This document shows positions 60,134-64,000 of a stretch of 64,000 bases of DNA, piece by piece (the first letter of the stretch is position 1; every line of letters starts with the position of its first letter). Made by a program: the position numbers and the translations under genes. The notes beneath the pieces were generated by a model. The model searched no databases and had not been told where the DNA came from. It worked only from the letters and a program-made list of their open reading frames with translations. Source of the DNA: Escherichia coli (GTDB lineage: Bacteria; Pseudomonadota; Gammaproteobacteria; Enterobacterales; Enterobacteriaceae). The DNA is taken from assembly GCF_041886205.1 (NCBI RefSeq), contig NZ_CP169029.1; one strand, given 5' to 3'.

Positions 60134-62572
60134 ATGGCTATCAAAAAAACCGAACTCTATTCTTCCCTGTGGGCAAGCTGCGACGAACTGCGTGGCGGGA
60201 TGGACGCCAGCCAGTACAAAGACTATGTACTGACCCTGCTGTTTATGAAGTACGTTTCCGATAAGTATAAAGGCGATCCTTACGGGATGATCGTGATACC
60301 CAAAGGAGCCAGCTTTGACGATATGGTTGCGCTGAAAAATGACAAAGAGATCGGCGATAAAATCAACAAAATCATCCACAAGCTGGCGGAAGAGAACGGC
60401 CTGAAGGGCGTCATCGACGAAGCCGACTTTAACGACGAAGATAAACTCGGCAAAGGCAAGGAAATGATTGACCGCCTGAGCAAGCTTGTCGGTATCTTTG
60501 AAGGGTTAGATCTCTCCAGCAACCGGGTCGAAGGCGACGATCTGCTGGGCGATGCCTATGAATATCTGATGCGTCACTTCGCAACCGAATCCGGCAAGAG
60601 TAAAGGACAGTTTTACACTCCGGCGGAGGTGTCACGTATTCTGGCAAAGGTGATTGGTATTACTCCCGATACGCCGCGAGATGCAACGGTTTATGACCCA
60701 ACCTGTGGCTCTGGTTCGCTGCTGTTGAAAGTGAATGATGAAGCCCGGCGCGGACTGTCGATTTTCGGCCAAGAGATGGATAACGCTACCAGTGCGCTGG
60801 CGCGGATGAACATGATTCTGCATAACAATGCCACCGCGAAAATCTGGCAGGGCAATACGCTGAGTGATCCGCAGTGGAAAGAGGCGAACGGCAAACTGAA
60901 AGCCTTCGATTTTGCCGTGGCGAACCCGCCTTTTTCCAATAAAAACTGGACCAACGGGCTGACGCCGAAAAAAGATCCGTTTGAACGCTTCGGCTGGGGT
61001 ATTCCGCCGGAAAAAAACGGCGATTATGCTTTTTTGTTGCATATCATTAAAAGCCTGAAAAGTACCGGCAAAGGCGCGGTGATCCTGCCCCACGGCGTAC
61101 TGTTTCGCGGTAACGCCGAAGCGAATATCCGTGAAAACCTAATCAAGCAGGGCTATATCAAAGGCGTTATTGGTTTGCCAGCCAACCTGTTTTACGGCAC
61201 CGGCATCCCGGCGTGCATCATTGTGATTGATAAAGAGCACGCCCACAGCCGCAAAGGCATTTTTATGATCGACGCCAGTCGGGGCTTTATCAAAGATGGC
61301 AACAAGAACCGCCTGCGTAGCCAAGATATTCACCGTATTGTGGACGTGTTCAACCATCAGCGAACGGTGCCAGGCTACAGCCGGATGGTGCCCTCCAGCG
61401 AGATCGCCGGGAATGATTACAACCTGAATATTCCTCGTTATATCGAGAGTGGAGAGCCGGAAGATTTGCACGATCTGACCGCGCACTTACAGGGCGGTAT
61501 TCCAGTGCGCGATGTAGATGCTTTGAAGGATTACTGGCGGGTATTCCCTGCCCTGCGTAATGTGCTGTTTGCTGACGACCACCCCGGTTACTGCCGGGCG
61601 CAAGTGGACGCGCAGCAGGTGAAACCGACCATTCTGGCTCATCAGGAGTTTAAGGATTTTGCCACCCGCAGCCTGCTACCGTTTAAGTCGTGGGTAAAAG
61701 AGGCAGGTCTGGAAGAGATCCGCAAAGGAGATAAACCCAAAGCGCTAATCCACGATATCAGCGAAATGCTATTGGCGCAGTACGCCAACAGTGAGTTGCT
61801 GAACAAATACAGCGTGTACCAGATCCTGATGGATTACTGGGCTGATGTCATGCAGGACGATGTGTATGTGATTATGCAGGATGGCTGGAAAGCCGCCGCG
61901 CAAATCCGCGAGCTTCAGCCGGTGAAAGGCAAAGATGGCAAAAACATCTGGAAAGAAACGCACGATTTCGAGTTTACCAAACGGCGCTACAAGGCCGATG
62001 TGCTGCCCCGTTCGCTGGTGGAAATTCGCTGTTTCCCGGAACTGCTGGATGCGCTGAACCGCGCGCAGGAGCGCAGTGAAGAAGCCAGTCGTCAGCTAGT
62101 GGAATTCATCGAGGAGCAGGCAGGGGAAGAGGATCTGCTGGCTGAGGTGAAAAACGATAAAGATAAGGTGACGCAAAAGCTGGTGAATGCCCGTCTGGCA
62201 CAGTTGAAGCCCCCCCCTGCCGACCCGGATGAGCTGGCAGTGCTGAACCGCTGTCTGGCGCTGATTAAGGCCGAGGCCAGTGCGAAAAAAGCGCTGAAAG
62301 CCGCACAGGAAGCGTTGGATCGAGCGGTATTTAAACATTATCCCACGCTGGATGAAGCAGCGATTAAAACGCTGGTAGTGCAGGATAAGTGGCTGGCAAC
62401 GTTGCAGGCAGGGATCAAAGCGGAGATAGAGCGTATTACCCAGCAACTGGCGTCGCGCGTAAAGGAGCTGGAAGAGCGTTATGCTGAACCGTTGCCAGCA
62501 CTTGAAGCCGCCGTTGAGGCGTTGAGCGAGAAAGTGGCCGGGCATTTGCGGGCGATGGGGCTGGAGTGGTGA
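60134..62572 (+). CDS. hsdM: Type I restriction-modification N6-adenine methyltransferase subunit (long form, 812 aa)
   Basis: Motif I DPTCGSGSLL and motif IV NPPF; ~300-aa C-terminal extension with heptad-like repeats. Confidence 0.9.
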   Translation: MAIKKTELYSSLWASCDELRGGMDASQYKDYVLTLLFMKYVSDKYKGDPYGMIVIPKGASFDDMVALKNDKEIGDKINKIIHKLAEENGLKGVIDEADFNDEDKLGKGKEMIDRLSKLVGIFEGLDLSSNRVEGDDLLGDAYEYLMRHFATESGKSKGQFYTPAEVSRILAKVIGITPDTPRDATVYDPTCGSGSLLLKVNDEARRGLSIFGQEMDNATSALARMNMILHNNATAKIWQGNTLSDPQWKEANGKLKAFDFAVANPPFSNKNWTNGLTPKKDPFERFGWGIPPEKNGDYAFLLHIIKSLKSTGKGAVILPHGVLFRGNAEANIRENLIKQGYIKGVIGLPANLFYGTGIPACIIVIDKEHAHSRKGIFMIDASRGFIKDGNKNRLRSQDIHRIVDVFNHQRTVPGYSRMVPSSEIAGNDYNLNIPRYIESGEPEDLHDLTAHLQGGIPVRDVDALKDYWRVFPALRNVLFADDHPGYCRAQVDAQQVKPTILAHQEFKDFATRSLLPFKSWVKEAGLEEIRKGDKPKALIHDISEMLLAQYANSELLNKYSVYQILMDYWADVMQDDVYVIMQDGWKAAAQIRELQPVKGKDGKNIWKETHDFEFTKRRYKADVLPRSLVEIRCFPELLDALNRAQERSEEASRQLVEFIEEQAGEEDLLAEVKNDKDKVTQKLVNARLAQLKPPPADPDELAVLNRCLALIKAEASAKKALKAAQEALDRAVFKHYPTLDEAAIKTLVVQDKWLATLQAGIKAEIERITQQLASRVKELEERYAEPLPALEAAVEALSEKVAGHLRAMGLEW

Positions 62573-63921
62573 TGGTGGATTTAATGGTGAATGAGCAACG
62601 GTCGGGTACGGCGGGGAAAGATGTGCCTGCGGGGTATAAGCTGACTGAGGTGGGGGTGATTCCTGAGGATTGGGTAGTAATCTCTATTGATGACTGTACA
62701 ACCAAAGTTGGTAGTGGAAAAACACCAACTGGTGGAGCATCTGTTTATATTGATAGCGGACGCCCTTTTGTCCGTAGCCAAAATGTTGATTGGGGAAGAT
62801 TAGATCTCGCCGATGTCGTACATATTACAGATGAAACCCATAACACATTCTCTGGTTCTGAAATTCAGCAAGATGATGTTTTACTCAACATAACGGGAGC
62901 ATCTATCGGCCGATGCGCTAAAGCTGATTTTAGGGTTATAGGTGGTAATGTTAACCAACATGTTTGCATCATCAGAACAGAGGCAAAAAAACTCTCCCCA
63001 TCCTTACTGGTTGAATTAATCAATTCAAATTATGGACAAAACCAGATTGATAGTTATCAAGCCGGAGGAAACAGAGAAGGACTGAATTTTTCTCAAGTTA
63101 AAAATCTTAAGTTTGCTATTACACCAAACTCCTTTGAACAAACGGAAATTGTCAGAACATTAAATGATATTAATGCATTTACTCTCGCTCTGGAAAACTT
63201 AATTGCTAAAAAACAGGCCATAAAAGCCGCTGCTATGCAACAACTACTTACCGGTAAAACCCGTTTGCCACAGTTTGCGTTGCGCAAAGATGGCTCTGCT
63301 AAGGGATATAAAAAGAGCGAGTTGGGGGAGATTCCTGAAGATTGGAATTGTATTAATCTTGGTGAGCTAGGTAATTGCATTATTGGGTTAACTTACAAAC
63401 CTGAAGATACATCTGATTATGGTACATTGGTATTACGCTCATCCAACATTCAAAATAATCACTTAGCTTATGATGATAACGTCTTCGTCAGCATAGAACC
63501 ACCTGAGCGCACAATTGTGAAAGAAGGTGATATCTTGGTATGTGTAAGAAATGGCAGTCGCCAACTTATTGGCAAATGCGCATTAATTGACAAAAATGCG
63601 CAGGGCTCAGCATTCGGTGCATTTATGTCAGTATTCCGAACTGATATATATGGATTTACATTTCACCAATTCCAGTCTGATATTATTCAAAAGCAAATCG
63701 CTGAAGTTATGGGTGCCACTATCAATCAGATAACTAACAAAGATATGTTGGGCTTTAAAATCCCATTACCTGAAAATACAGAAGAACAAGCCGCCATCGC
63801 CGCCATCCTCTCCGATATGGACAAGGAAATCCAGATCCTGCAACAGCGTCTGGACAAAACCCGCCAGCTTAAGCAAGGGATGATGCAGGAACTGTTAACC
63901 GGGAAAATCCGCTTAATATAG
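62566..63921 (+). CDS. hsdS: Type I restriction-modification specificity subunit
   Basis: Overlaps hsdM stop by 7 nt; two AT-rich target-recognition domains each preceded by GxIPEDW and separated by conserved LLTGK(T/I)RL spacers. Confidence 0.85.
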   Translation: MVMVDLMVNEQRSGTAGKDVPAGYKLTEVGVIPEDWVVISIDDCTTKVGSGKTPTGGASVYIDSGRPFVRSQNVDWGRLDLADVVHITDETHNTFSGSEIQQDDVLLNITGASIGRCAKADFRVIGGNVNQHVCIIRTEAKKLSPSLLVELINSNYGQNQIDSYQAGGNREGLNFSQVKNLKFAITPNSFEQTEIVRTLNDINAFTLALENLIAKKQAIKAAAMQQLLTGKTRLPQFALRKDGSAKGYKKSELGEIPEDWNCINLGELGNCIIGLTYKPEDTSDYGTLVLRSSNIQNNHLAYDDNVFVSIEPPERTIVKEGDILVCVRNGSRQLIGKCALIDKNAQGSAFGAFMSVFRTDIYGFTFHQFQSDIIQKQIAEVMGATINQITNKDMLGFKIPLPENTEEQAAIAAILSDMDKEIQILQQRLDKTRQLKQGMMQELLTGKIRLI

Positions 63922-63943
63922 AAGGGAAAGCACATGGCTTATG

Positions 63944-64000
63944 ATTACAGCGCCAGCCTCAACCCGCAAAAAGCTCTGATCTGGCGTATCGTCCATCGGG
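63944..64000 (+). CDS. Start of unidentified gene downstream of hsdS (truncated by window end)
   Basis: ATG at 63944 preceded by AGGGAAAG; MAYDYSASLNPQKALIWRIVHR; not recognisable as an HsdR N-terminus. Confidence 0.4.

Follow-up and report, generated by a model that had tools for sequence, protein, structure and literature searches.

Reports of DarTG pairs inserted in type I operons go back to 2016. In the DarTG2 systems of Thermus aquaticus and EPEC, a DUF4433 toxin gene is followed by a macrodomain antitoxin gene within a type I R-M operon (PMC5179494, PMC7003065), an arrangement shared by the locus described here. The EPEC DarT ADP-ribosylates single-stranded DNA at TTT/TCT, and its E170A mutant is inactive (PMC7003065). 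More recently, the RRDM island (RptR-RMS-DarTG-M48) has been characterized in EPEC O127:H6 strain E2348/69 (Zhang et al., Nucleic Acids Res 2025, PMC12255303). The island as a whole protects against five phages, the share of the R-M system in phage restriction not being separated from that of DarTG, and it is repressed by RptR. The product of rptR, the first gene, represses the island promoter via TAGCTA repeats over the -10 box, and two TAGCTA sites are enough for this repression. Moreover, the same authors reported that they could clone neither hsdMSR nor darTG2 on a plasmid under control of the unrepressed promoter (PMC12255303).

In this study, a stretch of 64,000 nucleotides of Escherichia coli DNA (the window) was analyzed, and its last 4 kb very probably (roughly 93%) represent the 5' part of an RRDM anti-phage defence island, organized as a single seven-gene operon, rptR-hsdM-hsdS-darT-darG-hsdR-M48. 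This architecture, with DarTG2 within the type I R-M system, RptR upstream and M48 downstream, is already known from EPEC. The sole feature not described in the literature consulted is that the small repressor gene, rptR, lacks its DNA-binding helix here.

Gene content of the island

Positions 60000-64000 of the window were 100% identical to complete, annotated E. coli genomes and, judged by this identity, hsdM, hsdS and the third gene are real genes rather than chance ORFs (Table 1). The part of darT after codon 22, darG, hsdR and M48 lie off-window and were deduced from genomes that match the final 4 kb of the window without a difference. In ZYB62 and O157:H7 17B6-2, the genes are overlapping or close-set and follow the seven-gene RRDM order (rptR'-hsdM-hsdS-darT-darG-hsdR-M48). 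Across the operon, PADLOC called DarT, DarG, MTase_I, Specificity_I and REase_I. The helicase-nuclease subunit HsdR is encoded together with hsdMS in the genomes identical to the window; it comprises 1031 aa and matched TIGR00348 with 546.2 bits (cut-off 284.55). It is followed by M48, a YgjP-like metallopeptidase (PF01863, E=1.6e-61). Two orphan genes upstream of the island had no match in PADLOC, NCBIfam or PHROGs; the Pfam search covered only the 459-aa one.

Table 1. Features of the island located in the window.
Feature	Position	Strand	Description and basis
Island promoter/operator	59858..59892	+	Sequence reading and EPEC alignment; mapped experimentally in EPEC (PMC12255303)
rptR allele	59924..60094	+	56 aa (EPEC 79 aa); PDB 9R2Z match, DNA and protein alignments
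hsdM	60134..62572	+	812 aa type I methyltransferase subunit; ATG 60134, TGA 62570-62572
HsdM C-terminal module	61469..62569	+	aa 446-812, 367 aa; helical domain, small beta unit, long helices
hsdS	62572..63921	+	449 aa specificity subunit; PADLOC Specificity_I, 445 bits
darT	63934..64000	+	First 22 codons, cut at window end; DarT2 ssDNA thymidine ADP-ribosyltransferase toxin

The gene downstream of hsdS opens with MAYDYSASLNPQ, its ATG at 63934-63936 beginning at the same base as the RefSeq start. The initial annotation had read its peptide, MAYDYSASLNPQKALIWRIVHR, correctly, but had placed the start at 63944 instead of 63934 and counted 19 codons instead of 22. Its doubt that this gene was hsdR was justified, as the annotation of the downstream region through identical genomes, a step it had proposed, gave darT, then darG and only then hsdR. 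Among the embedded toxins it had considered, the DUF4433/DarT-like candidate proved to be the right one. The full protein (218 aa in identical genomes) scored 262.6 bits against NCBIfam toxin_DarT NF048013 (cut-off 150), and both the catalytic glutamate, E170, and G49 are kept in this DUF4433 protein, of which the window itself holds codons 1-22. The macrodomain antitoxin gene, darG, is located off-window directly after darT with a 4-nt overlap, and its product scored 451.2 bits against NF048014 (cut-off 250). An additional sub-threshold match of DarG to an ADP-ribose-binding (macrodomain) model was observed in NCBIfam.

On this gene content, HsdM and HsdS would constitute a methyltransferase marking host DNA at a bipartite site, which would be chosen by the two recognition domains of HsdS, and the complex with the off-window HsdR would translocate and cleave unmodified phage DNA. 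The DarTG2 toxin-antitoxin pair is carried between hsdS and hsdR as cargo: DarT would ADP-ribosylate thymidine in single-stranded DNA (TTT/TCT) so that replication stalls, and DarG would take off the ADP-ribose mark and sequester DarT. These activities have been demonstrated in the literature for the near-identical EPEC proteins and are attributed to the present proteins by likeness.

HsdM, its C-terminal module and HsdS

HsdM, for which the length of 812 aa given in the initial annotation was confirmed, contains the two domains of a type I methyltransferase subunit, HsdM_N at aa 10-121 (PF12161, E=2e-16) and the N6-adenine methyltransferase domain N6_Mtase at aa 135-441 (PF02384, E=2e-103). 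It also matched TIGR00497 (280.8 bits, cut-off 242.75). The C-terminal extension described earlier is present; since nothing in Pfam was significant after aa 441, however, it spans approximately 370 aa and not 300. A domain search of this part, as had been suggested, returned no Pfam family, but the module recurs in thousands of HsdM proteins of roughly 800-830 aa from many phyla. It was matched by 2663 clusters at E<=1e-10, and the matches listed included full-length proteins with 790-850 aa. Furthermore, HsdM aligned end to end with the 810-position PADLOC model MTase_I PDLC03027, and long HsdM proteins were found in the AlphaFold DB from Proteobacteria, Actinobacteria, Firmicutes, Bacteroidota, Spirochaetes and Cyanobacteria. 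Within a large type I subfamily, an HsdM of this form is the rule. The description of the 812-aa HsdM as unusually long does not hold, because a very large subfamily has the same architecture; the protein is long only in comparison with the EcoKI or EcoR124I type.

The predicted structure of the module (pLDDT 89.9) consisted largely of helices, and long ones were seen at HsdM aa 698-738, 741-783 and 787-807. A Foldseek search of this model against the PDB returned nothing at E<=0.001, and a module profile searched against PDB sequences matched only the last ~40 residues of the methyltransferase domain. The interpretation of the module as a degenerate HsdS or TRD was rejected on the basis of an hhalign probability of 0.2%. 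A literature search for a described HsdM "C-terminal extension" returned nothing relevant, PMC12255300 dealing with gene order only. In classical HsdM, short C-terminal helices dock on the coiled coil of HsdS, and we infer the same for the C-terminal helices of the present protein. The module of ~370 aa is of interest as a very common unit with a high-confidence model but with neither a Pfam family nor a solved structure or assigned role.

The hsdS gene overlaps hsdM, as noted initially, by 1 nt when the RefSeq start is used (TGATG, ATG 62572) or by 7 nt with GTG 62566. Compared with two other alleles, its product showed conserved N-terminal, central and C-terminal parts and two variable blocks, the pattern of a type I HsdS, with TRD1 at ~aa 36-205, TRD2 at ~aa 261-400 and conserved regions between. 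The AT-rich character ascribed to both domains was also confirmed (GC 0.32-0.46 versus 0.53 in hsdM). TRD1 was identical to that of strain STEC2017-197.

Promoter, operator and rptR allele

The island promoter consists of a -35 box, TTGAAC (59858-59863), and a -10 box, TAATTT (59881-59886). The operator consists of two 9-bp direct repeats, TTTAGCTAA, at 59875-59883 and 59884-59892, each of which contains the RptR site TAGCTA (59877-59882 and 59886-59891); an RRDM operator is recognized by at least two such sites overlapping the -10 box, which is the case here. A scan for consensus promoters and terminators was uninformative, as it overlooks the experimentally mapped promoter. The TTG at 59858, from which a 78-aa ORF could be read, belongs to the -35 box and was for this reason not accepted as the start of rptR.

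The repressor of an RRDM island is an intact RptR of 79 aa carrying the DNA-recognition helix alpha4 (T57-K61), of which E58 and K61 are invariant in 87 homologues. The allele in the window encodes 56 aa: 69 bp have been lost in frame at the direct repeat CCGGTCTGA (junction 60069-60077), and with them ~aa 51-73. Among the missing residues are T57-K61, which contact the DNA, and L65, R68, L69 and A72, which belong to the dimer contacts; these roles are known from the EPEC study (PMC12255303). The match of the 56-aa protein to PDB 9R2Z (E=4e-31) was confined to aa 1-54, and RefSeq records rptR as a pseudogene with a missing C-terminus. The same deletion allele occurs in 35 of the 249 island-bearing complete E. 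coli records, many O157:H7 among them.

By descent the island is the same as that of EPEC, but its own repressor is predicted to be inactive and repression to be lost through the deletion, since an RptR without the DNA-recognition helix would not be expected to repress its island copy. A distant paralogue of RptR, or some other regulator, might make up for this loss. The stronger reading, that the deletion is a natural repressor-null allele under which the type I R-M and DarTG genes are constitutively derepressed on the chromosome and tolerated, is put forward tentatively, at slightly short of an even chance. If true, nature would have supplied a ready-made test of what the repression of a defence island costs and what it gains. 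A widespread rptR allele lacking the DNA-binding helix could reveal whether a single-copy island needs repression.

The deletion might also be the first step of pseudogenization in a decaying island, whose R-M and DarTG genes would be silent or non-functional rather than derepressed. Components of the island do decay: besides the RefSeq pseudogene call for rptR, hsdM is frameshifted in ETEC4073, one of the strains with the deletion, and darT is frameshifted in a different strain whose rptR is intact. [quoted passage not shown] The rptR deletion itself is in frame between 9-bp repeats, which argues for a single slip and not for accumulated damage, and decay is therefore considered unlikely.

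Two further alternatives concern the assignment of the genes rather than their regulation. With only 22 codons in the window, the gene at 63934 might be another embedded accessory gene, for instance of the PrrC (anticodon nuclease) or Abi type, or just a remnant of darT, if the continuation of the window differed from the references. This is very improbable, as EPEC DarT begins with exactly the same 22 residues, darT is annotated under the match in all 25 best-matching genomes listed, and the full protein is assigned to DarT alone by both NCBIfam and PADLOC; between hsdS and hsdR, PADLOC scored only DarT and DarG, and neither database gave a PrrC or Abi match. Likewise, the lack of a Pfam domain in aa 442-812 might suggest that the 812-aa HsdM is an artefact, in which a sequencing error or the loss of a stop codon has joined hsdM to a separate gene downstream. 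The end-to-end PADLOC model, the clusters that match the module and the AlphaFold DB entries of the same architecture from six bacterial groups refute this reading.

Comparison with known systems

HsdM has the HsdM_N and N6_Mtase core in common with classical HsdM of EcoKI (family IA) and EcoR124I/II (family IC) (PDB 2ar0, 7bst, 3lkd), and matched classical type I structures with E=2e-76 to 6e-22 over aa 1-450. Classical HsdM stops ~50-90 aa past the catalytic domain, whereas the present protein continues into the conserved module, for which the solved structures hold no counterpart.

The closest described system is the EPEC island, which agrees with the present locus in all seven genes, in their order and in their spacing. 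Identity reaches 100% for DarG and M48 and is 807/812 (99.4%) for HsdM, 1026/1031 (99.5%) for HsdR and 215/218 (98.6%) for DarT, which differs by three conservative substitutions (R97Q, N139D and S213A) and nothing else of substance. The alignment showed no change in the -35 and -10 boxes and the same TAGCTA operator repeats, of which EPEC has three and the present locus two. By contrast, both target-recognition domains of HsdS differ from those of EPEC, so a different recognition site is expected. The flanks also differ, with two orphan genes upstream here and IS elements in EPEC. Finally, the 79-aa RptR of EPEC is replaced here by the allele from which the in-frame deletion has removed helix alpha4.

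Gene content of the locus

The locus is nearly identical to an island that has been published and characterised experimentally, the seven-ORF RRDM island (RptR-RMS-DarTG-M48) of EPEC E2348/69 (Zhang et al., Nucleic Acids Res 2025; PMC12255303), and the finding is therefore already known. As the initial annotation had described, an 812-aa hsdM is present in the ORF list and is overlapped by hsdS, the hsdM stop and the hsdS ATG sharing TGATG. The two AT-rich target-recognition domains (TRDs) claimed for HsdS were likewise borne out, with a GC content of 0.32-0.46 in the variable blocks and 0.41 over the whole of hsdS, vs 0.53 in hsdM. 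For the third gene, the quoted peptide was correct, but the start had been placed at 63944, a slip of 10 bases, and 22 rather than 19 codons lie within the window.

Complete E. coli chromosomes, including that of the bovine strain ZYB62, matched the final 4 kb of the window with 100% identity, and many O157:H7 genomes matched it with at most one difference. In the identical genomes, the annotated downstream sequence contained darT, darG and then hsdR, which lies about 1.7 kb past the window end; the suspicion that the third gene was not hsdR and was possibly DarT-like was correct. The order in ZYB62 was a truncated HTH-like gene, hsdM, hsdS, darT, darG, hsdR and an M48-family peptidase, followed by an IS66 element, and O157:H7 17B6-2 had the same gene order. 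The PADLOC gene assignments agreed with the curated models.

Features of the locus in the window and, for the last four rows, in ZYB62
Feature	Position	Strand	Product (aa)	Family model (bits; cut-off)	Remarks
Ag43/Cah-type autotransporter and YeeP-like GTPase genes	52424-56554	-			
Orphan gene	56871-57389	+	172		
Orphan gene	57526-58905	-	459		
Island promoter	-35 TTGAAC at 59858; -10 TAATTT at 59881				intact
Operator	59858-59892				
rptR	59924-60094		56		upstream of hsdM; 79 aa in EPEC
rptR deletion junction	60069-60077				
hsdM	60134-62572	+	812	TIGR00497 (280.8; 242.75)	ORF list
hsdS	ATG 62572 to 63921	+	449		RefSeq start
hsdS, alternative start	GTG 62566	+	451		ORF list
darT, 5' end only	ATG 63934-63936	+			
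darT	starts at equivalent of 63934		218	NF048013 (262.6; 150)	
darG	4-nt overlap with darT		355	NF048014 (451.2; 250)	
hsdR	after darG		1031	TIGR00348 (546.2; 284.55)	
M48-family peptidase	1-nt overlap with hsdR			PF01863 (E=1.6e-61)	YgjP-like

The long HsdM and its C-terminal module

The length of HsdM, which had been called unusual, is real but ordinary among proteins of its kind: a PADLOC model for type I methyltransferases, 810 positions long, matched residues 1 to 812 with 1422 bits, models of 857 and 834 positions also matched through to the C-terminus, and long homologues number in the thousands. Pfam placed HsdM_N at residues 10-121 and N6_Mtase at 135-441, and no significant Pfam family was found past residue 441. 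The C-terminal module (residues 446-812), when its 367 aa were used alone as the query, retrieved hundreds of homologues with 46-57% identity, from Vibrio, Cellvibrio, Xanthomonadales, Myxococcales and others, and N6_Mtase was always attached in complete proteins. Moreover, when a library of 1.84 billion representatives was searched with a profile built from 40 homologues, 4462 clusters matched at E<=1e-3, of which 2663 also passed E<=1e-10; the full-length proteins among the matches listed mostly had 790-850 aa and carried the module between about residues 410 and 820.

A confident AlphaFold2 model on the homologue alignment (pLDDT 89.9, pTM 0.76) predicted a helical domain and a small beta unit, with three long helices at the C-terminal end. 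This fold recurred (TM 0.8-0.95) in methyltransferases of about 800-830 aa from hosts including Rhodobacter, Streptomyces, Leptospira, Campylobacter, Helicobacter pylori, Finegoldia and Bacteroidota. The possibility that the module is a degenerate HsdS was rejected on comparison of the two. The terminal helices (residues ~741-807) were highly conserved. In classical HsdM of the EcoR124I/EcoKI architecture, short C-terminal helices bundle with the HsdS coiled coil, and because of this known architecture we infer that the terminal helices of the long HsdM would do the same. The module, very common yet uncharacterised, is one of two points of residual interest, the second being the rptR deletion allele.

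The rptR deletion and neighbouring DNA

The rptR product matched the RptR crystal structure 9R2Z over residues 1-54 only, and DNA alignment with EPEC and STEC2017-197 revealed that 69 bp had been cleanly deleted, in frame, between two CCGGTCTGA copies. In RptR, DNA is contacted by T57-K61, a stretch in which the mutant S60G was tested; all 87 homologues keep E58 and K61, and the dimer interface consists of L65, R68, L69, A72 and L74 (PMC12255303). The deleted segment takes in T57-K61, L65, R68, L69 and A72, with L74 outside it; the deletion takes away the DNA-recognition helix. The operator carries two TTTAGCTAA repeats in the window and STEC2017-197, and EPEC has a third 9-bp copy. A second -10-like box reads AGCTAACTT in the window instead of AGCTAATTT.

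A junction-spanning query over 249 island-bearing complete E. coli records detected the deletion in 35 and the intact 144-bp span in the other 214; O157:H7 genomes were numerous among the carriers, which also included isolates from cattle, pigs and chickens. The RptR paper mentions neither O157 nor such an allele (PMC12255303), and the deletion is the one feature of the locus not found in the literature. The six other island genes are intact in ZYB62 and O157:H7 17B6-2, and the chromosomal island is apparently repressor-less; its derepression is a prediction. Since neither hsdMSR nor darTG2 could be cloned on pBR322 immediately downstream of the unrepressed promoter (PMC12255303), such an intact island on the chromosome is mildly interesting.

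In ETEC4073, a deletion carrier, hsdM (L005 11099-13536) is annotated as frameshifted, through real inactivation or an assembly error, and in STEC2017-197 darT is frameshifted (L003 16295-16684) with darG, hsdMSR and rptR intact, a strain that has thus kept the antitoxin but not the toxin.

Two convergent orphan genes separate the YeeP-like GTPase gene from the island promoter and occupy a low-GC stretch (0.36-0.45). Neither matched PADLOC, NCBIfam or PHROGs, and a Pfam scan, run on the 459-aa orphan only, was likewise negative. The pair accompanies the deletion haplotype in ZYB62, O157:H7 and ETEC4073. In STEC2017-197, a tyrosine recombinase and an anti-phage dGTPase replace the orphans in the slot upstream of rptR (L003 9069-11191; window ~56.8-59 kb), which suggests a variable defence-cargo site adjoining the island. 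The YeeP-like GTPase had a weak PADLOC LeoBC/LeoA match (E=1.9e-8). Dynamin-family, RdcB and patatin genes come next in the matching genomes, and the R-M island is thus part of a larger mobile island.

Comparison with the EPEC island

Five phages plated less efficiently, by factors of 10^3 to >10^7, in the presence of the cloned EPEC island, and hsdM was induced more than 15-fold upon infection (PMC12255303). EPEC DarT ADP-ribosylates TTT/TCT in ssDNA and replication stalls, DarG both reverses the modification and sequesters DarT, and E170A inactivates DarT (PMC7003065). DarTG within type I operons was noted in 2016 (PMC5179494), and the authors of the EPEC study consider the junction of hsdS and hsdR a hotspot for defence cargo (PMC12255303). 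Compared with EPEC, DarG and the M48 peptidase are identical, HsdM is identical at 807/812 positions, HsdR at 1026/1031 and DarT at 215/218, with G49 and the catalytic E170 kept; HsdS shares 200 identical residues. Alignment of the window, EPEC and STEC2017-197 HsdS alleles revealed two variable blocks set among regions conserved at the N-terminus, the centre and the C-terminus, which is the textbook HsdS pattern. TRD1 of the window is identical to that of STEC2017-197, and neither of the other two alleles shares its TRD2. Both differ from the EPEC TRDs, and given how type I enzymes are known to work, this system should recognise a different sequence from that of EPEC.
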